A stretch of DNA of 64,000 nt from an uncultured SAR86 cluster bacterium (GTDB taxonomy: Bacteria; Pseudomonadota; Gammaproteobacteria; Magnimaribacterales; AG-339-G14), in the NCBI GenBank assembly GCA_902566305.1, contig CACFIK010000005.1:10779-74778 (forward strand), in the 5' to 3' direction. A program made the position numbers and the translations under genes. The notes under the pieces were generated by a model. That model was given only the letters and a program-made list of their open reading frames with translations, was not told the origin of the DNA and did not search any database. The first letter of the stretch is position 1; the number at the start of each line of letters is the position of its first letter. This document shows positions 7,437 through 16,805 of this stretch, piece by piece.

Positions 7437-8993
7437 ATGCAGAAAATTGATCAAGATAAGATAGTTATCCTTGATTTTGGTTCGCAATACACTCAGCTTA
7501 TTGCCAGAAGGATCAGAGAAATAGGAGTTTTATCCGAAATTGTCTCATGCGAAATATCCCCAAAAGAACTTTTAAAATTAAATCCAAGAGGCATTATTTT
7601 TTCTGGCGGTCCAGAATCGGTTAATTCGAAGTTTAAACCTAAATTTAATTCTAAGATTCTTGAAATAAACCGACCTATTTTAGGGATTTGCTACGGAATG
7701 CAATTATTAGCAAGCCAATATAAAGGAAAAGTAGATTTGTCGGCGAAGAGAGAATTCGGTCACTCAGAATTAGCATTTAACAAAAATATTCTTTTTAAAG
7801 GAGTAAAAGGGAAAAAAACAAAAATTGACGTATGGATGAGTCACGGCGATAAAGTTGTAAAGCTTCCGAAACAATTTAAAAGGATTGCCTCGTCGACAAA
7901 TTCTAAAATTGCCGCATTCGCTTCGAATGACAAACAACGCTTCGGTGTGCAATTTCACCCCGAGGTGTCTCACACCGATCAAGGGCAAAAAATATTAAGT
8001 AACTTCGCTTTGGATATTTGTGGTTGTAAGAAAAATTGGACTTCAAAAAATATTATTAATGATTTGGTTCAGAACATTAAAGATCAGGTTGGAAATAAAC
8101 ATGTTCTCTTAGGAATTTCGGGTGGTGTGGATTCCAGTGTTGTAGCCGCTCTCATTTCAAAAGCTATCGGTAAAAGATTGCATTGTATTTTTGTCGATAA
8201 CGGACTTTTAAGGAAAGATGAATCCATCCAAGTTAATCGTGATTTAAAAAAAGGTCTTGGCTTGAAGATTACTACTGTAAATGCCGAAGATATATTCCTG
8301 AAAAAACTTAAAGGCAGGACAGATCCTGAAGAAAAAAGGAAAATAATAGGCAGAACCTTCATAGATGTATTTTCAAAAGAGGCAAAAAAAATAAAAAATA
8401 TAGATTTTTTAGCTCAAGGAACTATCTATCCAGATTATATTGAATCAGCAGGAAAAAAGGGCGGTAAAGCGCATGTCATAAAATCGCATCATAACGTTGG
8501 AGGGTTACCTGAAAAATTAAAGTTTCCCCTTGTTGAACCGCTCAAATTTCTTTTTAAAGATGAGGTTAGAAAGATAGGAAGAAAATTAGGATTGCCAGCT
8601 TATCTTATCGAAAGGCATCCTTTTCCAGGTCCAGGGTTAGGCGTTCGATTGTTGGGTGCTATAGACAAAAGTAAGTTAGAGATATTAAGAGAAGCAGATG
8701 CCATTTTCATGGAAGAACTAATCAAGCAAAAGCTTTACAACAAAATAAGTCAAGCTTACGCAGCTTTTCTTCCAGTTAAATCAGTAGGTGTTGTTGGAGA
8801 TGCAAGAAGATATGAATACGTAATTGCCCTAAGAGCGGTTGTAACGCTTGATTTCATGACGGCTAATGTATTTCCTTTCAAACAAGAATTCCTTAATCAT
8901 GTTTCAACAAGAATAATGAATGAAATAGATAAGGTTTCTAGAGTTGTTTATGATATTTCGAGCAAACCTCCTGCAACTATTGAGTGGGAGTAA
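7437..8993 (+). CDS. guaA: GMP synthase (glutamine-hydrolysing)
   Basis: 518 aa. GATase Cys block GICYGMQLL, ATP-PPase P-loop SGGVDSS, family C-terminus PATIEWE. Confidence 0.95.
   Translation: MQKIDQDKIVILDFGSQYTQLIARRIREIGVLSEIVSCEISPKELLKLNPRGIIFSGGPESVNSKFKPKFNSKILEINRPILGICYGMQLLASQYKGKVDLSAKREFGHSELAFNKNILFKGVKGKKTKIDVWMSHGDKVVKLPKQFKRIASSTNSKIAAFASNDKQRFGVQFHPEVSHTDQGQKILSNFALDICGCKKNWTSKNIINDLVQNIKDQVGNKHVLLGISGGVDSSVVAALISKAIGKRLHCIFVDNGLLRKDESIQVNRDLKKGLGLKITTVNAEDIFLKKLKGRTDPEEKRKIIGRTFIDVFSKEAKKIKNIDFLAQGTIYPDYIESAGKKGGKAHVIKSHHNVGGLPEKLKFPLVEPLKFLFKDEVRKIGRKLGLPAYLIERHPFPGPGLGVRLLGAIDKSKLEILREADAIFMEELIKQKLYNKISQAYAAFLPVKSVGVVGDARRYEYVIALRAVVTLDFMTANVFPFKQEFLNHVSTRIMNEIDKVSRVVYDISSKPPATIEWE
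8979..8993 (+). repeat. Core copy A: ATTGAGTGGGAGTAA (guaA codons I-E-W-E-stop)
   Basis: Exact 15-mer is repeated at 9419-9433, and with 14/15 identity at 10420-10434. Confidence 0.9.
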
Positions 8994-9047
8994 TTTTTAA
9001 AATGAATATTAATTAAATCTTTGGATATTTTTTGCTAGGATGATGAG

Positions 9048-9353
9048 GTGATAAGTTTTTTTAAAAAATACAAAACTTATTTAGGTATATTTTTCTTTAT
9101 TTTTGCGGTAGTTCTTTCAAGAATAGGAAGACAACAAGATATTCCTGCACTTAACTTACCTTTGATTCTTTGTTTCACTATCATAGTTATCTCTTTTCTG
9201 TTTGCATTGATATTAATAATTTATGAAAAAGGATTTTTTAATTCAATAAGAACTCCTATATTCTGGATATACCTTATCTTAATTATTTTAGGATTTTATT
9301 TTATTGTGTTTCCGTTTTTTTCTTTAGGAATGAAATATTTAATTAATCTTTAA
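9048..9353 (+). CDS. Small hydrophobic protein (about 3 TM segments), unknown function
   Basis: 101-aa ORF with GTG start, the only sizeable ORF in cassette 1. No recognisable motifs. Confidence 0.4.
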   Translation: MISFFKKYKTYLGIFFFIFAVVLSRIGRQQDIPALNLPLILCFTIIVISFLFALILIIYEKGFFNSIRTPIFWIYLILIILGFYFIVFPFFSLGMKYLINL

Positions 9354-9354
9354 C

Positions 9355-9372
9355 ATACAAACTTCATACAAA
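9355..9372 (+). repeat. Tandem heptamers ATACAAA-CTTC-ATACAAA (site 1)
   Basis: 7-4-7 direct repeat with 11-bp phasing, starting 2 nt after the cassette-1 ORF stop. 46 nt separate it from core copy B. Confidence 0.85.
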
Positions 9373-9418
9373 GTCGAAATTAAAATCAATGGAATCAATA
9401 ATTTATAAACCTTTTACC

Positions 9419-9433
9419 ATTGAGTGGGAGTAA
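9419..9433 (+). repeat. Core copy B: ATTGAGTGGGAGTAA
   Basis: 15/15 identical to the guaA end. The in-frame context AAA CCT TTT ACC ATT GAG TGG GAG TAA (KPFTIEWE-stop) resembles guaA KPPATIEWE-stop. Confidence 0.9.
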
Positions 9434-9473
9434 AGAAATCGAACTTAACCAGAATTTTTGAATAGGAAGAGAA

Positions 9474-10331
9474 ATGACAAATGTAGAACACGTGGTTCTG
9501 AGTGACGGACGAAAACTGGCCTATGAGCAATTTGGCGCAGAGAATGGTGTGCCGGTTATCTACAACCACGGTTGGCCTTCATCCCGTTTAGAATGTCGCC
9601 ATTTAGTACCAATTGCTGAAAAAACTGGTGTTAAATTGATCTCAGTTGACCGGCCAGGGATGGGCGGGTCAGATTTCCAGCCGAATCGTGCCCTTCTGGA
9701 TTGGCCGAATGATATTTCTCAACTCGCTGATCACCTGTGCCTCGACAAATTTCATATCTTGGGTGTATCAGGTGGGGGTCCTTACGTATCAGTCTGCGCT
9801 TACAAGATTCCAGAGCGTTTGTTAGGCGCAGCGATAATTGCTGGTGTTACTCCGATGACTAACCCTCGCACAAAACACGGAATGAGGATGATGAACCGCA
9901 TTTTACTGAATGTGGGGAAACCGGCGCCCTGGTTGCTCAATTGGTTTATGAAATACATGCAAAATGTGGCCAACGACACTGAAAAGTTAAAGAGAGCGTT
10001 AAGTGATCTTCCAGAGGTAGACAAGCAGGTGATGACAGGAGATACAATCGATGAGTTAGCCGAGTCGGCGCAGGAATGTCTCCGACAAGGGACCGCAGGA
10101 GCGACGCAAGACGGTCGCATCTATGCCCTACCATGGGGGTTCGAGCTCAATCAAATCGACATACCCGTTACCGTCTGGCAAGGCTCGCTGGACGTCAATG
10201 TCCCGCTGTCCAACGGCCAGATCCTGGCAGAGTCCATTCCTAACGTATCTTCCAATTTTATAGATGGAGAAGGACATTTTTCTATACTGATTAACCATGG
10301 CGAAACGATGTTGACCGAGTTAATCGGTTGA
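9474..10331 (+). CDS. Alpha/beta-fold serine hydrolase, compositionally foreign
   Basis: 285 aa. HG oxyanion motif (YNHGWPSS), nucleophile elbow GVSGGG, C-terminal GEGHF. Hand counts: 30/60 and 38/60 G+C in lines 9481-9540 and 10081-10140, versus 12/60 in 9061-9120. Confidence 0.85.
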   Translation: MTNVEHVVLSDGRKLAYEQFGAENGVPVIYNHGWPSSRLECRHLVPIAEKTGVKLISVDRPGMGGSDFQPNRALLDWPNDISQLADHLCLDKFHILGVSGGGPYVSVCAYKIPERLLGAAIIAGVTPMTNPRTKHGMRMMNRILLNVGKPAPWLLNWFMKYMQNVANDTEKLKRALSDLPEVDKQVMTGDTIDELAESAQECLRQGTAGATQDGRIYALPWGFELNQIDIPVTVWQGSLDVNVPLSNGQILAESIPNVSSNFIDGEGHFSILINHGETMLTELIG

Positions 10332-10355
10332 CGCCACTATAATGACAAATATCAT

Positions 10356-10373
10356 ATACAAAGTTAATACAAA
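10356..10373 (+). repeat. Tandem heptamers ATACAAA-GTTA-ATACAAA (site 2)
   Basis: Same 7-4-7 layout as site 1. Again exactly 46 nt before the core (copy C). Confidence 0.85.
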
Positions 10374-10380
10374 CTTTTTT

Positions 10381-10405
10381 GAAACCCCTTTAAATAAAGG
10401 GTTTC
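10381..10405. other. Inverted repeat GAAACCC(C)TTTA-AA-TAAAGGGTTTC in the cassette-2 tail
   Basis: Imperfect 25-nt palindrome ending 14 nt before core copy C. The T-run precedes rather than follows it, so it does not look like an intrinsic terminator. Confidence 0.6.
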
Positions 10406-10419
10406 AGAGGGTATTACTC

Positions 10420-10434
10420 ATTGAGTGGGAATAA
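10420..10434 (+). repeat. Core copy C: ATTGAGTGGGAATAA
   Basis: 14/15 match to the guaA end. The single change GAG to GAA is synonymous, so it still reads I-E-W-E-stop. It is followed by AAC then the ATG of the next gene. Confidence 0.85.
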
Positions 10435-10437
10435 AAC

Positions 10438-12447
10438 ATGAAATATAGATCAGAAATTGATGGTCTAAGAGCGCTGGCAGTTTTGCCGGTAATTCTTTTT
10501 CATGCCGGCTTTGAGTGGTTTAGAGGTGGTTTTATAGGCGTGGACGTTTTCTTTGTGATTAGCGGCTATTTGATTACAACCATAATTATTTCTGAGATTG
10601 TTGAGGGTAAATTCAGTATTGTTAATTTTTATGAGCGTCGAGCCAGAAGAATACTACCCGCTTTATTTTTTGTCATGGCTATCTGCATACCCTTTGCTTG
10701 GCTGTGGCTTACACCAAATGACCTTAGAGATTTTGGACAGAGTCTTATTGCAGTATCCACATTTTCTTCCAATATTCTTTTTTGGTTAGAAAGTGGTTAT
10801 TTTGATACCGCTGCAGAACTAAAACCATTGCTTCATACTTGGAGTTTGGCTGTTGAGGAGCAGTTCTATATTCTTTTCCCTATTTTTCTAATCCTTACTT
10901 GGCGCTTGGGAGTTAAGTGGGTTTTAATTTTTCTATCATTACTATTTTTTATTAGTTTAGGAATCTCTTATTGGGGTTCTTACAACTCTCCTTCTGCTGC
11001 TTTCTTCCTACTTCCAACAAGAGGTTGGGAATTACTTGTTGGTGCTTTTGCTGCCTTTTACCTCAAGGCTAATAATCACCTGAATTCTCTTAATGTAAAT
11101 CAAACTTTTAGTTTGCTAGGTTTTGGAATGATTATTTATTCAATTATAGCGTTTGATAAAACTACTCCTTTTCCTGGCTTGTTTGCTTTAATCCCTACAT
11201 TTGGAACGGGTCTAATAATTCTTTGTGCTGTTCCAAAAACTTTTGTTCACAAACTACTAAGTCTAAAGATTATTGTTGGAATTGGATTGATTTCCTATAG
11301 CGCTTATTTGTGGCATCAGCCCTTATTGGCATTTGCGAGGCATAGATTTTTGGGTGATGTTTCAGAATTATTTTTAATTACCCTGTGTTTTATCTCATTC
11401 GCCATGGCATGGTTTAGTTGGAAATTTGTTGAGTCTCCTTTTCGAAAAAAATCAATATTCAAAAGAAAAAGTATCTTTGTTATGTCCGCGTTAATGGGTG
11501 TAATTTTTTCCGTATTAGGACTTTTTCTTCATATGAATGTTACTACCCCTTCTAAATTTGATTTCTATGGGAAAGAAATATCAATACCAGATAAGTATGG
11601 AGGAATTATTGATAACAAAAGGAAATGTTCTTTTCCTGACTTAATTTCTAAAGAAAAACCTTGCGAAATTTTTGGAGGCGGTGAATTAGGTGACTTAGTA
11701 ATCATTGGCGACTCACATGCCAGAGTCTTGTCTGAATCATTTTATTCTTCTGTCGGTTACTTTAATTCACTTATCGACTTAACAGCTTCAGGTTGTCCTT
11801 TTCTTATAGATTCAAATATTTACATTGGCAAAACTTTGAATTGCTCTAGCGACTACCAGCTTGCCAGACAAAAAATCTTGACAGAACGGCGCAATAGCAC
11901 TGTGGTTTATCAGGCCCGCTTACCATTGTATTTCTATGGTAATGGATTTGATAATGGCAATCCTGGCGGTAATGAGATAAGAGCAAAAGTAAGGGTTACT
12001 GGTAAAAAATCTTTTTCTAATGTTGAGGAAGAGCGTCGATATTTTCTCGAAAGTCTCAAAAATTCAGTGGGATTTATAGCAAAAAATAACAACATGCTTT
12101 TTATTATTTTGCCTTCTTTCAGCAATGGATGGGATCCAATAGATAGACTTTTCGCATTGGAAACACAAGGATTTTCGTTACAAGAAGCGAAGGATTACCT
12201 CGCTATTCAAAAGAAAGTTGTTGATCAACGAGTTGATCATTTAAGAGAAGAATTAATTTCGATATCTAAGAATTTTGATAATGTAATAATAGTTGACCCA
12301 AACAAATTTGTTTGCTCAATAGATTTTTGCTCCCCATTGAGTAGTGAGGATGAATTGCTTTTCACTGACGCAGATCATTTCTCTTTAAAAACTAACGATT
12401 TAATTTTCAATGAAGTACTTAAATCTATGGAATCTTTAAAAAGATAA
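10438..12447 (+). CDS. Acyltransferase-3 family membrane O-acyltransferase with C-terminal SGNH domain (OafA-like)
   Basis: 669 aa. N-terminal EIDGLRALAVLPVILFHAG block, about 10 TM segments, C-terminal SGNH block IIGDSHA. Confidence 0.85.
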   Translation: MKYRSEIDGLRALAVLPVILFHAGFEWFRGGFIGVDVFFVISGYLITTIIISEIVEGKFSIVNFYERRARRILPALFFVMAICIPFAWLWLTPNDLRDFGQSLIAVSTFSSNILFWLESGYFDTAAELKPLLHTWSLAVEEQFYILFPIFLILTWRLGVKWVLIFLSLLFFISLGISYWGSYNSPSAAFFLLPTRGWELLVGAFAAFYLKANNHLNSLNVNQTFSLLGFGMIIYSIIAFDKTTPFPGLFALIPTFGTGLIILCAVPKTFVHKLLSLKIIVGIGLISYSAYLWHQPLLAFARHRFLGDVSELFLITLCFISFAMAWFSWKFVESPFRKKSIFKRKSIFVMSALMGVIFSVLGLFLHMNVTTPSKFDFYGKEISIPDKYGGIIDNKRKCSFPDLISKEKPCEIFGGGELGDLVIIGDSHARVLSESFYSSVGYFNSLIDLTASGCPFLIDSNIYIGKTLNCSSDYQLARQKILTERRNSTVVYQARLPLYFYGNGFDNGNPGGNEIRAKVRVTGKKSFSNVEEERRYFLESLKNSVGFIAKNNNMLFIILPSFSNGWDPIDRLFALETQGFSLQEAKDYLAIQKKVVDQRVDHLREELISISKNFDNVIIVDPNKFVCSIDFCSPLSSEDELLFTDADHFSLKTNDLIFNEVLKSMESLKR

Positions 12448-12687
12448 GTTGTATTTAAAACGTTTGTGTAATTGATTCTTACTTTTGCAAACATTTTTTT
12501 TGATTTATTTCTTTTATTGTTTATTAGGCGGAGCAGTTTAAGCAATATAGATGAATATTTTTATTAATATTTATAATTTGTAAGTTTTTAGAAAATTGTT
12601 AAATCATAATTGATAAAATTATTGAAGAGACTGCATTAATAATAATCTAAAATAGACTGATTCTTTGTGTAAGGCAGGAAAATAACA

Positions 12688-13500
12688 GTGAAAAATTTTT
12701 ATCTAAAGCTTTGGAGAAGTAGATTTAATATCCCAAGACGTGCTTTTTGGAAAATTATTAGAATTTTAGTTTCAGAATTTAATTTGTACGGAATTTCAAG
12801 TGATTTCCAGAATAGTCAAATGAAAGAAATTGGGCTAATTCGCGAAGATGGCCTGGCTAAGTTGAATTATGTTTTAAAAGATGTGATGTCGAAACCATAC
12901 GATGAAAATGACGGAATGTTTTCTGAACATCTTGTTTTAATTTCATCAATTTCGGTATCTAATTTAAACATAAAGAGAGTTCTTGAGGTTGGAACACATG
13001 ATGGAAGAACTGCACTAATTCTAAGCCGATTATTCCCTGAGGCAGAAATTATTACTATCGACTTGCCGAGCGATGAAAAAAGCTTCGAAGAAACCTATAG
13101 TAGAGATAACTCAGTCAATGAGTTTACAAATAAAAGAAATAACCTAATTGCAAAAGCCGATAATATTGATTTTAAAGAAGTCAACTCTATTAGGCTATGT
13201 GAATGGGAGGAGAATTTCGATTTAATTTGGATTGATGGGGCGCATGGATATCCGGTTGTTGCTATGGATATTATCAATAGTTATAGGCTAGCAAATAAAG
13301 GAGCATTCATCCTTATTGATGATATTTGGAAGAGCGTAGATTTATCTGATGCTATGTATAAGTCTATTGGAGGAATTGAATCATTAAATATGCTTGTTAA
13401 TGCAAAACTTATTTCTAAATATTATCTTTTTCATAAGCGTCTCGGAGGTATTTTTAATTATCCTGGACAGAAGAAGTATGTTGGTTGTTTTATAAAATAA
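12688..13500 (+). CDS. Class I SAM-dependent methyltransferase
   Basis: 270 aa, GTG start. Motif I VLEVGTHDGRTAL, later IDGAH and DD blocks. Start position uncertain. Confidence 0.65.
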   Translation: MKNFYLKLWRSRFNIPRRAFWKIIRILVSEFNLYGISSDFQNSQMKEIGLIREDGLAKLNYVLKDVMSKPYDENDGMFSEHLVLISSISVSNLNIKRVLEVGTHDGRTALILSRLFPEAEIITIDLPSDEKSFEETYSRDNSVNEFTNKRNNLIAKADNIDFKEVNSIRLCEWEENFDLIWIDGAHGYPVVAMDIINSYRLANKGAFILIDDIWKSVDLSDAMYKSIGGIESLNMLVNAKLISKYYLFHKRLGGIFNYPGQKKYVGCFIK

Positions 13501-13531
13501 AAACTCAATTTAGCCCTATTAAAACTGGAAA

Positions 13532-14281
13532 GTGGAAGTAGATTTAATTTTATTTGTAGTTTTAATTTCAACTCTTTTTACAGCATTTTTATCTTCAATA
13601 TTTGGGATGCTCGGTGGTCTAATTTTAATGGGAATATTAATTAGTCTATTACCTGTTGGACCTGCTATGGTCCTTCATGGTCTTATTCAAGCAACATCAA
13701 ATGGATACAGGGCATGGATAAATAAAAAAGATATCAACTGGAAAATTATTTTAACCATCCTCATGGGAAGTATTTTTTCTTTGGTCATTTTTTATTTTAT
13801 TGCATTTGAGCCAAGTAAAATTTTAGTTCTATTTGCTTTAGGTTTTCTGCCATACCTAGCTTGGGCAGTACCAAAAGAACTTTCATTTGATATAAATAAA
13901 CCAACTACTGGAGTTTTGGCAGGAGGAGTAGTAGTGGGCAGTAATCTTTTATCTGGGACAGGTGGACCAATTTTGGATATTTTCTTTCAGAAGGTTGATA
14001 TGACAAGGCACGAGGTCGTGGCTACTAAGGCAGTAGCTCAAACATTAGGACATATCTCTAAAATACTTTTTTTTGGAATATTTGTTTCTGTAAATTTCGA
14101 AAACTGGCCAAATATTTACTTTCTTTTCATAGCAATTTTATTTTCAGTGACTGGAACTTCTTTAGGAAAGCGAGTTTTAGATATAATAGATGATAGATTT
14201 TTCTTCAGATGGACGCAGATCATTATTCTCTCTGTAGGAGCCATTTTTATTCTAAGAGCTTCATACTTATTAATTTTTTAA
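13532..14281 (+). CDS. TauE/SafE-family (sulfite exporter-like) membrane protein
   Basis: 249 aa, GTG start, about 7-8 TM segments with Gly-rich helices typical of the family. Confidence 0.6.
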   Translation: MEVDLILFVVLISTLFTAFLSSIFGMLGGLILMGILISLLPVGPAMVLHGLIQATSNGYRAWINKKDINWKIILTILMGSIFSLVIFYFIAFEPSKILVLFALGFLPYLAWAVPKELSFDINKPTTGVLAGGVVVGSNLLSGTGGPILDIFFQKVDMTRHEVVATKAVAQTLGHISKILFFGIFVSVNFENWPNIYFLFIAILFSVTGTSLGKRVLDIIDDRFFFRWTQIIILSVGAIFILRASYLLIF

Positions 14282-14335
14282 AATGGTGAATCTGAATCAA
14301 AGAATCAAAAAATCTTAATTAGTAAAAATGAAATT

Positions 14336-15412
14336 ATGAAAAATTTAAAAGATGAAATTAAGTTTCCATGCGGCCTATCTATGAAAAATAGATTTATGCT
14401 TGCTCCATTAACTAATACTCAGAGTCATGAAGATGGAGTTCTTTCAGATGATGAGTTTAATTGGTTAACTATGAGAGCGAGAGGTGGTTTTGGACTCACT
14501 ATGTCTTGTGCTTCGCATGTTCAGGCTATTGGTAAGGGTTTTCCCGGACAATTAGGAATTTTTAGCGATGAACATATAGATGGATTAAAAAAATTAACCG
14601 ATGAAATTAAATCTCACGAAAGTTTAGCCGTTGCTCAATTACACCATGCTGGAATGAGATCGCCTGAAGATATTATTAGAGAACAGCCTGTCTGTCCTTC
14701 AGATGATGAGGAGACTAACTCAAGAGCATTGACTCTTGATGAGGTCAAAAGATTAAGAGATAACTTTATTGAAGCTGGAGTAAGGGCAAAAAAGGCAGGT
14801 TATGAAGGGGCTGAAATTCACGGAGCTCACGGCTATATTTTGTGTCAATTTTTAAGTTCTGATATCAATAAGAGAGAAGACGAATATGGAGGAACTTTAG
14901 AAAACAGATCCAGAATCATTTTTGAGATAGTTGACGGCATTAGAAATGAATGCGGTTCTAAGTTTCTATTGGGAGTTAGATTATCTGCAGAAAGATTTGG
15001 AATCAAACTAGGAGAAACAAAAGAGGTTTGTAAAAAACTTATTGATACCGAAAAAATAGATTTTTTAGATATGTCACTTTGGGATTCCTTTAAAGAGCCG
15101 GTAGAGGAAGAGCACAAGGGTAAGAACCTATTGGAGCATTTTACAGAACTTGATTTTAAAGATGTTCAGTTAACGGTAGCGGGAAACATAAGGACTGGCG
15201 AGAACGTTCATGCAATACTTAATAATAAAGTAGATTTCGTAACTATTGGGAGAGCGGCTATTCTCCATCATGATTTTCCTATTAAAGTCATAGAAAACTC
15301 ATACTTTGAACCCATTGAGCTTCCAGCTCCTAGATCTCATTTAATTAAAGAGGGACTAAGCGATAAATTCATCGAATATATGGGAGCTTGGCCTGGTTTT
15401 GTGGGTGAATAA
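14336..15412 (+). CDS. NADH:flavin oxidoreductase (Old Yellow Enzyme family)
   Basis: 358 aa. APLTN block near the N-terminus and HGAHGYILCQFLS active-site block. Confidence 0.85.
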   Translation: MKNLKDEIKFPCGLSMKNRFMLAPLTNTQSHEDGVLSDDEFNWLTMRARGGFGLTMSCASHVQAIGKGFPGQLGIFSDEHIDGLKKLTDEIKSHESLAVAQLHHAGMRSPEDIIREQPVCPSDDEETNSRALTLDEVKRLRDNFIEAGVRAKKAGYEGAEIHGAHGYILCQFLSSDINKREDEYGGTLENRSRIIFEIVDGIRNECGSKFLLGVRLSAERFGIKLGETKEVCKKLIDTEKIDFLDMSLWDSFKEPVEEEHKGKNLLEHFTELDFKDVQLTVAGNIRTGENVHAILNNKVDFVTIGRAAILHHDFPIKVIENSYFEPIELPAPRSHLIKEGLSDKFIEYMGAWPGFVGE

Positions 15413-15422
15413 AGAAGTTGAA

Positions 15423-16145
15423 TTAACTTTTAAAATCTTCTGAATTTTTGAGCATGTGAGCAGGACCATGATTGATATTAATGGCGGCATTTTTACCGAA
15501 TAACATTTCTTTCTGGTAGCCAAAGTTTTTTCTATCGGTTGCTAGCGGCGCTAACTCTTCAGCTTTCTTTACGGCCAATTCTGGCAATTCTTCAAACGAG
15601 CTTGTTGCTTGAACAATCCCAGCATCAAGCGCATCAGTTCCAGTCCATCTTTTTGATAATTGAACTGTTTCATAGAAGGCATTTGCAGGAATTTTATGCT
15701 TGAATAAAGATAGCTCAGGTCTTGGAATAGATAAGCCTAGTTGCATTTCATTAGCGCATAAGAATCCTCTATCTTCTCTCATAATCCTTACATCATGGGT
15801 CAGAGCAAGCATAAATCCGGCTCCAAAAGCATGACCATTTATCGCACAAACTGTAGGTATTGGCAACGTTATAAAACGGCCCATAAGATGCATAAATTCT
15901 TTACCAAAAATATCTCTATCGCCTCCATCAGGATTACTTTTAGGATCTTGCATCCAATCAAGATCTAAACCGTTTGAAAAGAACTTAGGATTCTCAGAAG
16001 AGGTGATTAATGCTCCAGGACCTTCATCTTTTTCAATTTCATCAAGCGCTTTGGCTATTTCTCTTACAAAAGTAGTATTCCAACGATTTTCATTGGCAGC
16101 TAGATTTAAAAAATAGATTGATTCTTTTTTCTCTAGTTTTATCAC
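15423..16145 (-). CDS. Enoyl-CoA hydratase/isomerase (crotonase) family protein
   Basis: 240 aa. Crotonase oxyanion block INGHAFGAGFMLALTHDVRIM. Confidence 0.8.
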   Translation of the reverse strand: MIKLEKKESIYFLNLAANENRWNTTFVREIAKALDEIEKDEGPGALITSSENPKFFSNGLDLDWMQDPKSNPDGGDRDIFGKEFMHLMGRFITLPIPTVCAINGHAFGAGFMLALTHDVRIMREDRGFLCANEMQLGLSIPRPELSLFKHKIPANAFYETVQLSKRWTGTDALDAGIVQATSSFEELPELAVKKAEELAPLATDRKNFGYQKEMLFGKNAAININHGPAHMLKNSEDFKS

Positions 16146-16193
16146 AATATTTTTTTAATAGATTTACTTTTAAAACATCATACATAAAAAACG

Positions 16194-16211
16194 ATACAAA
16201 TTAGATACAAA
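16194..16211 (+). repeat. Tandem heptamers ATACAAA-TTAG-ATACAAA (site 3)
   Basis: Same 7-4-7 direct repeat as in the two guaA cassettes. It lies in the intergenic region 51 nt upstream of the apt ATG. Confidence 0.85.
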
Positions 16212-16262
16212 CTTTCTTTAGATGCTTTAATATCTCGTCCTAAGGAAATATAGGAGAAGGAA

Positions 16263-16805
16263 ATGAGTGATCCATTAAATTTAAAAAAACACATTAGAGA
16301 GGTCAAAGATTTTCCAATTAAAGGGATTAATTTTAGAGACATAACAAGCCTCATAGAAAATCCTGAAGCTTTTCAAACTACCTGCAAGGAATTAATAGAA
16401 GTTTCGAAAAATTTTAATGCTTCGGTCATCGCAAGCATTGAGAGCAGAGGTTTTATTTTTGCAGGCTCAATTTCTTTTGAGCTCGGACTTCCTTTTGTTC
16501 TAGCAAGAAAACCAGGAAAACTTCCTAACGAAACATTTAAAAAAGACTTTGATTTGGAATACGGGAGCACTTCTATTGAGATCCAAAAAAATACAACCTT
16601 TAAGAGCTCTGATAGGGTCGTCATTGTTGATGATTTGGTTGCAACTGGTGGAACAGCAATTGCTTGCGCAGAACTTTTGACTGAAAACTTTAAAATTAAG
16701 AAGTCAAATATTCTTATATTAGGCGTTATAGATTTGCCTAAATTAGGCGGCAGCGATCTAATTGTTAAAGAGGGATACAATATTCAGACTCTTGTTTCCT
16801 ACTAG
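16263..16805 (+). CDS. apt: Adenine phosphoribosyltransferase
   Basis: 180 aa. PRPP-binding motif VVIVDDLVATGGT. SD taggagaagg upstream. Confidence 0.9.
   Translation: MSDPLNLKKHIREVKDFPIKGINFRDITSLIENPEAFQTTCKELIEVSKNFNASVIASIESRGFIFAGSISFELGLPFVLARKPGKLPNETFKKDFDLEYGSTSIEIQKNTTFKSSDRVVIVDDLVATGGTAIACAELLTENFKIKKSNILILGVIDLPKLGGSDLIVKEGYNIQTLVSY

Follow-up and report, generated by a model that had tools for sequence, protein, structure and literature searches.

The stretch considered here, hereafter the window, is the whole 64,000-nt piece of contig CACFIK010000005.1 (positions 10,779 to 74,778) from an uncultured SAR86 cluster bacterium, in which the GMP synthase gene guaA is followed by two short gene cassettes, each closing with a tail made of two ATACAAA heptamers, a spacer of 46 nt and a copy of the last 15 nt of guaA, the core. 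SAR86 is among the most abundant bacteria of the surface ocean and is uncultured, and the gain and loss of genes in such streamlined genomes are poorly understood. The anatomy of these tails, their distribution in related genomes and metagenomes and their putative role as integrase attachment sites are described below, starting with the following features of the window, with the basis of each in brackets:

7437–8993, plus strand: guaA (GMP synthase), whose last 15 nt are taken as the chromosomal attachment core (Pfam GATase and GMP_synt_C)
8979–8993, plus strand: core copy 1, ATTGAGTGGGAGTAA, the left array junction and attL equivalent (core copies)
8994–9433, plus strand: cassette 1, 440 bp, with an open reading frame (ORF) at 9048–9353, tail and core (core boundaries)
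9355–9372, plus strand: putative arm-type repeat pair of cassette 1 (sequence, shuffle test)
9393–9405, plus strand: match AATCAATAATTTA to the consensus of integration host factor (IHF), in the class B spacer of cassette 1, 26 nt before the core (sequence)
9419–9433, plus strand: core copy 2 (core copies)
9434–10434, plus strand: cassette 2, 1001 bp, with an alpha/beta hydrolase ORF at 9474–10331, tail and core (core boundaries)
10356–10373, plus strand: putative arm-type repeat pair of cassette 2 (sequence, shuffle test)
10381–10405, plus strand: inverted repeat GAAACCC-N11-GGGTTTC in the class A spacer of cassette 2 (sequence, fold)
10420–10434, plus strand: core copy 3, ATTGAGTGGGAATAA, the next ORF beginning 3 nt on (core copies)
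10435–16193, no strand assigned: terminal segment without an intact core (Pfam)
16194–16235, plus strand: apparent decayed class C tail, ATACAAA-TTAG-ATACAAA with about 24 nt of spacer, the core lost (alignment)
16263–16805, plus strand: apt, the native right-hand neighbour of the array (Pfam Pribosyltran)

The pairs ATACAAA-CTTC-ATACAAA (9355–9372) and ATACAAA-GTTA-ATACAAA (10356–10373) were read directly from the window, and each is separated from the core by exactly 46 nt (9373–9418 and 10374–10419), as had been claimed in a preliminary description of this DNA. The same description held the two spacers to be unrelated in sequence, which pairwise alignment upheld, and placed in the second one the inverted repeat GAAACCC...GGGTTTC, whose arms were indeed found at 10381–10387 and 10399–10405, with the right end 14 nt before the core. 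The cores starting at 9419 (ATTGAGTGGGAGTAA) and 10420 (ATTGAGTGGGAATAA) both repeat the final 15 nt of guaA (8979–8993) and share the form ATTGAGTGGGA(G/A)TAA. The occurrence of the pairs beyond chance, also asserted earlier, was borne out by three exact copies of the 18-nt ATACAAA-N4-ATACAAA arrangement in the window versus 0.00 expected from 100 shuffles, while the lone heptamer occurs 33 times on both strands together versus 17 expected. The ORF of cassette 1 encodes a protein of 101 amino acids (aa), predicted to be membrane-like and without a Pfam match.

The third exact pair, absent from the preliminary list, lies at 16194–16211; it has no core, and apt starts 52 nt further on. Its repeats and the first ~24 nt of its spacer align with the class C tails of metagenomes (the spacer classes are given below) before the sequence diverges into the apt leader, and on this alignment the pair is judged to be a decayed class C tail fused to apt and not a counter-example. 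The terminal segment 10435–16193 would represent a unit that is no longer excisable at its right end. The decayed tail before apt was found also in two related SAR86 genomes (L004 and L006), and in seven other loci apt stands directly behind the last core, so that guaA-apt is likely the ancestral junction. In about 250 kb of SAR86 sequence every heptamer pair belongs to a cassette tail, a cassette head or the apt relic; a scatter upstream of unrelated genes, named in the preliminary description as an outcome that would speak against a recombination site, was not seen.

A transcription-factor box of the OmpR/PhoB type, or a promoter part serving the next gene, would offer another explanation for the 7-4-7 repeat, since Pho boxes share this direct-repeat geometry, the third pair stands 52 nt upstream of apt, and a sigma-70-like sequence TTGACG-16-TATCAT (10 of 12 positions, 10328–10355) ends one base before the heptamers of cassette 2, the sequence around it being conserved in the genomes L004, L008 and L009. 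However, the tail travels with the upstream cargo and not with the downstream gene, the site before apt is homologous to a cassette tail, promoter-like matches in the tails stay at the frequency of shuffled sequence, and the repeat sequence varies among the cassettes of one array, so that no single host factor fits; such a regulatory role appears scarcely probable. No terminators were detected in the tails, and Rfam returned nothing in the window between 8900 and 10500 at E <= 1.

The content behind guaA was compared with that of nine SAR86 single-cell or metagenome-assembled genomes (L001–L009, loci of 15–22 kb), whose guaA is 93–98% identical to that of the window. Cassettes are missing behind guaA in L001 and L003; the hydrolase cassette stands alone in L004 and together with one more in L009; in L007 the site is occupied by a cassette of 6 kb that encodes a type I restriction-modification system, and cassettes carrying other tails were found in L002 and L005. 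Even where guaA is at least 97% identical the content varies, from an empty site (L003) through one cassette (L004) to two (the window). Cassette 2 (9434–10434) is 99.1–99.5% identical in L004 and L009, where it comes first after guaA, and cassette 1 has no counterpart in the nine genomes, so that insertion is precise at the core. The G+C content of cassette 2 (0.45–0.48) exceeds that of its surroundings (~0.34), which marks it as acquired from elsewhere.

Scanning of metagenomes with the heptamer pair, N31-61 and the core, in line with the pattern search proposed in the preliminary description, yielded at least 120 marine metagenome contigs. Among the 121 instances listed the spacing was 46 nt in 100, 45 nt in nine, 44 nt in four and 47 nt in four, that is, 44–47 nt in 117, with single outliers at 39, 49, 55 and 57 nt. 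The fixed 46-nt distance claimed earlier is thus a strong mode and not an absolute rule, the range among these instances being 39–57 nt. Sorting of the spacers by eye gave at least three unrelated-looking classes, namely class A, to which cassette 2 belongs, with the inverted repeat GAAACCC...GGGTTTC, class B, that of cassette 1, with ..TTAAATCAATA.CTTA.., and class C with TTTAGATGCC..., and all three appear to keep 44–47 nt, which points to a distance constrained beyond common descent. Most of the 46-nt instances are homologous class A tails, and a part of the constancy is accordingly ascribed to common descent. The guaA genes in front of the ATACAAA arrays, class A tails included, encode proteins 52–70% identical to that of the window, a divergence from which it follows that the system spans several marine lineages.

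The homology of most 46-nt spacers, which makes the constancy largely a matter of shared ancestry, would also suit a reading of the repeats as functionless 11-bp tandem duplications inherited within one tail family. This is the least credible of the explanations considered, as unrelated repeats and spacers show the same phasing and distance, and an element can have its motif again in its own head.

The search of viral contigs gave no match to the heptamers-N31-61-core pattern and none to the core followed by the CTGAAACCC head. The pattern GGGTTTCA-N13-core had 66 viral matches (L201–L266), all inside one conserved phage coding gene (...RGFQIKSAIEWEKF...), and they were therefore set aside as coincidence; this gene, by reproducing GGGTTTCA-N13-ATTGAGTGGGA, would be a false positive for any tail search. 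ACT followed by the core had 40 viral matches, which are mostly prophage borders at guaA of unrelated taxa and not the cassette elements. On two phage contigs of IMG/VR (L281 and L289, 108 and 203 kb) a tail-like site composed of GTTAGAAA-N3-GTTAGAAA, an IHF-like AAATCAATGCTTTA and then ACT+ATTGAGTGGGAGTAA stands right behind a restriction-modification module, with no integrase in the stretch examined; either a phage attP or a captured cassette could explain it.

The general design of the tails was derived from 195 unique tails other than guaA itself, in which a repeat was scored as phased if an 8-mer recurred at an offset of 11 with at least 7/8 identity. Such a repeat was present in 146 of the 195, and perfect repeats numbered 68 at offset 11 and two at other offsets, with one in shuffled tails. 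The repeat sequence is class-specific, both copies changing together, and at least ten classes were distinguished, with repeat sequences such as ATACAAA, (A)GTTACAAA, CTTGTAAAC, GTTACACG, GTTGTAAAG, CTACACAC, TGACAAAC, ACTTGTAAAC, GTTACACA/G, TGACACA and CACAACAAAC. Thus, of the earlier view of ATACAAA as the tail repeat, the 11-bp phasing proved general, while the heptamer itself is one class among these. The phased pair lies 43–46 or 52–57 nt from the core, two distances approximately one helical turn apart. Anchored to the core and conserved across the classes are AAGGGTTT (22–15 nt before it) and AAACCC (38–32 nt before it), and 11 tails of the SAR86 loci, the metagenome loci and the window, that of cassette 1 included, have an exact IHF consensus, WATCAANNNNTTR, beginning 26 nt ahead of the core, versus ~3.6 matches expected over all positions. 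The IHF consensus occurs in some heads as well, and the class A tails, that of cassette 2 included, have the inverted motif in its place. At the left side, 14 of 113 cassettes carry a phased pair 37–51 nt after the left core, and in eight of the 11 cassettes with both pairs the head motif is the same as the cassette's own tail motif, five of these being of classes other than ATACAAA, as would be expected if a single class-specific protein read both the P and the P' arm.

The structure and covariation analysis of the spacers proposed in the preliminary description did not support covariation of the hairpin. As single-stranded DNA the class A tail folds better than its shuffles (z = -2.7), but the class B tails, that of cassette 1 included, show no significant fold (z = -0.3), and the arms of class A keep a conserved sequence at fixed positions, their pairing not being maintained by compensatory changes: 39–82% of the sequences are paired per position, and a shift by one column pairs equally well. 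The absence of covariation in the arms and the unfolded class B lead to reading of the inverted motif as a double-stranded protein site and not a hairpin. A folded single-stranded site like attC, with the GAAACCC/GGGTTTC hairpin recognised and the heptamers secondary, might otherwise be suggested by the class A fold and by the co-oriented, mostly single-ORF array, which resembles an integron; nevertheless, apart from the pairing evidence, the core is a 15-nt identity block and not GTTRRRY, the large integrases described below have no match to the NCBIfam integron-integrase models, and the small second recombinase falls far below the cut-offs, so that this reading is held to be highly unlikely.

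The cores of an array are all on one strand, and up to eight cassettes follow guaA in one contig (L185), with nine core matches in another (L162). Altogether 146 complete core-bounded cassettes were extracted (43–6006 bp, median 1.1 kb), forming 121 sequence clusters, and recurring cassettes sit beside different neighbours. In 111 of them the longest ORF has the orientation of guaA, in 20 it runs the opposite way, and 15 have none, a distribution that agrees with the earlier expectation of the tail at the 3' end of a cargo unit. The cargo sampled with Pfam comprises a MerC-like protein, GNAT acetyltransferases, amine oxidases, alpha/beta hydrolases, a methyltransferase and an M23 peptidase. 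In 74 of the 195 cores an ATG or GTG follows within 8 nt, and, given start codons so close behind, the GGGAG of the core may provide the cassette that follows with a ribosome-binding site. A trace of an integrase was found in one of the 146 complete cassettes, as the truncated relic of L139; the other matches in the searched loci are L166, where the integrase lies beyond the last core, and the fragment starting L112, with no more.

These matches came from a profile hidden Markov model that was built from the integrases of guaA prophages, seeded by the viral ACT+core matches, and returned three loci (L166, L112 and L139). In L166 a tyrosine recombinase of 449 aa stands directly after the core, preceded by four copies of CTTGTAAAC; L112 starts with an integrase fragment, its element ending in an ATACAAA class B tail, and in L139 the truncated relic begins a cassette. 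Homologues in the databases occupy the same place behind the guaA core, so that candidate recombinases, which the preliminary description had left to be identified, are now offered by tyrosine integrases lying directly after this core (L166, L307, L308, L311, L317 and L319) beside the same kind of repeats. The complete element of L307 (6.8 kb) is ordered as guaB, guaA, core, four ACTTGTAAAC, an integrase of 427 aa (P0009), about 5 kb, two ACTTGTAAACT and core, having the core at both of its ends. L308 carries GTTGTAAAG repeats and an integrase 53% identical to that of L166, and L309 carries CTTGTAAAC repeats; within the L112 clade the heads of L311 and L319 contain GTTACAAA and that of L317 contains TTACAAAG with the IHF consensus. 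The host guaA of L307, L308 and L317 is ~58% identical to that of the window. In L312 a tail, a damaged core and the head CATACAAACA-CTACAAAC precede an integrase that shares 59% identity with that of L112, and through L112 and L312 the ATACAAA class appears linked to one integrase clade.

By its domains the integrase resembles those of phages, with Phage_integrase and a SAM-like domain by Pfam, and no NCBIfam family reached its cut-off. The AlphaFold2 model of P0009 (predicted local distance difference test score, pLDDT, 86) has an N-terminal four-strand sheet with a helix (residues 29–93), followed by a body for which Tn1549 Int, XerH, Cre and lambda Int are the matches. Among viral proteins the integrase is best matched by full-length phage integrases, in alignments of 400–444 columns, and tblastn of P0009 against 72,556 PLSDB plasmids gave no match at E <= 1e-3. 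The box II regular expression for tyrosine recombinases returned one spurious match and missed the real integrases, because these have CGTS/AGTS in place of LGH. No N-terminal remnants of an integrase were found beside the ATACAAA heads.

In the L112 clade ORF calling divided the integrases between two frames, into an N-terminal part of 195–220 aa and a catalytic part of 210 aa (L314 2–1305, L317 5810–7074, L313–L316), in several samples and with 44 members in the P0126 cluster, for which a genuinely split gene, pseudogenes or a frameshift that recurs could account. A second recombinase accompanies several integrases: a tyrosine type of ~190 aa, with the catalytic domain only and on the opposite strand (L166 2000–2590, minus; L307 11967–12542, minus), or a serine resolvase of 203 aa, on the same strand directly after the integrase in L313–L316 and L318, and truncated, on the opposite strand and ~300 bp from the integrase in L319. 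A truncated copy of the small recombinase starts a cassette of L139 (1435–1800, tail-oriented frame).

Taken together, the tails are considered probable P arms of a lambda-type attP, with the heptamers as arm-type integrase sites and the cassettes mostly free of an integrase and mobilised in trans. The arm-type reading relies on the autonomous elements, in which a divergent tyrosine integrase right behind guaA is flanked by the same classes of repeats. It accords with the proposal of the preliminary description that arm repeats, spacer and crossover core compose a dedicated cassette recombination site, all sequence-level predictions of which held.

In the proposed mechanism, the two heptamer copies, one helical turn apart and followed by a spacer with the IHF consensus or AAACCC...GGGTTT and by the 15-nt core, would be bound by the N-terminal domain of a heterobivalent tyrosine integrase, and the spacer would allow this integrase to extend to the core, the proposed site of strand exchange. 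Recombination of two directly repeated cores would excise the intervening cassettes as a circle, and the circle could re-insert them by recombining with a core. Autonomous relatives that occupy the same site and share the repeat class would provide the integrase in trans, in which case the repeat sequence would decide which integrase moves which cassette. The cassettes are mostly oriented with guaA, with ORFs that often begin no more than 8 nt behind the core, and read-through from guaBA is the probable means of their expression.

The principal alternative, which still implies a recombination site, is that the repeats bind some other protein encoded by the element, for instance the second small recombinase or an excisionase or directionality factor. 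The Xis-type factors do bind tandem direct repeats in the lambda P arm, and the autonomous elements encode, besides the second recombinase of ~190 or 203 aa, several small unannotated ORFs; however, in these elements repeats lie on both arms and beside the integrase gene, as is usual for arm-type sites of integrases, the model gives the integrase an additional N-terminal domain, and the repeat class tracks the integrase clade in the few available cases, so that this alternative seems unlikely, though far from negligible.

Several observations weigh against the arm-type integrase reading, apart from the circumstance that another factor of the element could read the repeats. About a quarter of the tails have no clear phased repeat, and ~88% of the cassettes carry no head repeats and would need to recombine with the P arm only. 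Several repeat classes coexist within one array, for which several integrases or a relaxed specificity would be needed, and neither the 64-kb window nor the nine SAR86 loci contain an integrase. The link of ATACAAA to an integrase draws on two loci, one of which, L312, is an assembly of ~1x coverage with a damaged core. For the N-terminal domain Pfam gave sub-threshold hits only (DUF6538, E = 4e-4 to 5e-3), and the single-sequence AlphaFold2 model of the 100 N-terminal aa alone had a pLDDT of 42, unusable for fold comparison.

In comparison with the lambda-type attP, the guaA elements are alike in the core being the chromosomal target duplicated at both junctions, in the tandem repeats, unlike the core, that lie tens of nt off on one or both arms, in the integrase gene abutting the P' arm, and perhaps in a site for a bending protein between arm and core (the IHF consensus of one class) and in a three-domain integrase, as modelled. 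They differ in that most cassettes have the P arm only and no integrase, many arm specificities share one core, and class A cassettes have a conserved inverted motif instead of the IHF site; moreover, the guaA system is described here at the level of sequence.

The guaA target itself has precedents. Thus, GAGTGGGA cores at guaA are recombined by the integrase of GIsul2, which also moves the core-bounded CR2-sul2 sub-unit, itself without an integrase (PMC9376610), and PIME mobilizable elements use the guaA 3' end (bioRxiv 10.64898/2026.01.12.698999). Common to GIsul2, PIME and the present elements are the target at the 3' end of guaA, the GAGTGGGA core and the tandem insertions that recreate cores. 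The cassette elements, however, are 0.04–7 kb in size, no alpA or conjugation genes were noticed in them, they form arrays of up to eight units in streamlined marine bacteria, and P0009 lacks a match in PLSDB, a set that includes GIsul2 carriers according to the literature, this comparison being indirect, as the GIsul2 integrase itself was not retrieved.

The Prochlorococcus tycheposons build flexible islands by repeated insertion at tRNA genes (bioRxiv 10.1101/2020.12.28.424599), and they share with the guaA elements the marine oligotrophic hosts, the tyrosine recombinase, sometimes a small serine recombinase, the cargo, and the repeated insertions at a single site, separated by partial target copies, whose remnants build the flexible island. 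Unlike the tycheposons, which target tRNA genes and usually have their own integrase and a replication module, the guaA elements target a protein gene and are mostly tiny integrase-less cassettes with a conserved tail.

With integrons, by analogy only, they share long co-oriented arrays of mostly single-ORF, apparently promoterless cassettes, each ending in a recombination site, an extreme diversity of cargo and an enzyme presumed to act in trans; but the guaA arrays have no IntI (guaB-guaA being upstream of the site), no attC-type structure and no GTTRRRY core, their sites look like double-stranded arm-plus-core ones, and the end of a housekeeping gene stands in place of attI. The cis-mobilizable elements (CIMEs) and the tandem accretion of the ICESt1 family are alike in being flanked by att sites, in lacking recombination genes and in standing in tandem with autonomous relatives at a conserved gene's 3' end. 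The CIMEs known so far are large products of decay and few in number, whereas the cassettes comprise 121 types among 146, mostly of ~1 kb and each with an intact-looking arm.

The mechanism itself, an arm-and-core site-specific recombination, is classical, and the integron-like organisation and the integrase family appear to be undescribed: no description of guaA cassette arrays, their tails or their integrase family was found in the open-access literature, which is an absence of evidence. It is tentatively proposed, with somewhat more doubt than conviction, that SAR86 and other marine gammaproteobacteria possess a second, integron-independent cassette system, in which promoterless cassettes, mostly with one main ORF and each with a double-stranded arm-plus-core recombination site, would be arrayed at the guaA end, expressed by guaBA read-through and moved in trans by a previously uncharacterised family of heterobivalent integrases whose diversified arm specificities partition the pool. 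The tails would mark a searchable mechanism of gene exchange, with one conserved site behind guaA collecting interchangeable cassettes; the same cassettes and tails occur behind guaA of only 52–70% protein identity. The pattern of phased repeat, spacer and core makes it simple to search metagenomes for the flexible gene pool of these organisms, and the natural set of putative integrase/arm-site pairs, differing in specificity over one core, may help to understand and perhaps to engineer the specificity of tyrosine integrases. The classical arm-and-core recombination would here be organised as an integron-like array at a housekeeping gene of a major ocean bacterium.

Among the minor features of the window, the terminal segment 10435–16193 encodes an AT3-SGNH acyltransferase, a methyltransferase, TauE, an OYE flavin oxidoreductase and, on the minus strand, an enoyl-CoA hydratase. 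From ~13530 to its end it is common to all nine SAR86 genomes, and its first 3.1 kb are found in the window only, the acyltransferase and the methyltransferase (10435–13530) being absent from L001–L009 and the variation there having no recognisable core boundary. The match to ATTCAGTGGGATTTA at 12062, inside the acyltransferase gene, was taken as chance.

Unusual units were also met with in the arrays of other loci. "Empty" cassettes consisting of a tail only form 119-bp units in L130, L150 and L171, and still shorter units of 43–44 bp, with an IHF-like sequence between two cores, occur in L098 (2298–2340) and L162 (5551–5594). In the L149 cassette 1595–2706, which has no phased repeat, the alpha/beta hydrolase ORF runs into the core and ends in ...PGTIEWE*, borrowing the C-terminal codons of guaA. 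The core's own short tandem repeats stand directly behind guaA in unrelated contigs, as three copies of GTTGAATGGGAATAG (L293, ~3895) and two of ATTGAGTGGGAATA (L041, ~11540).

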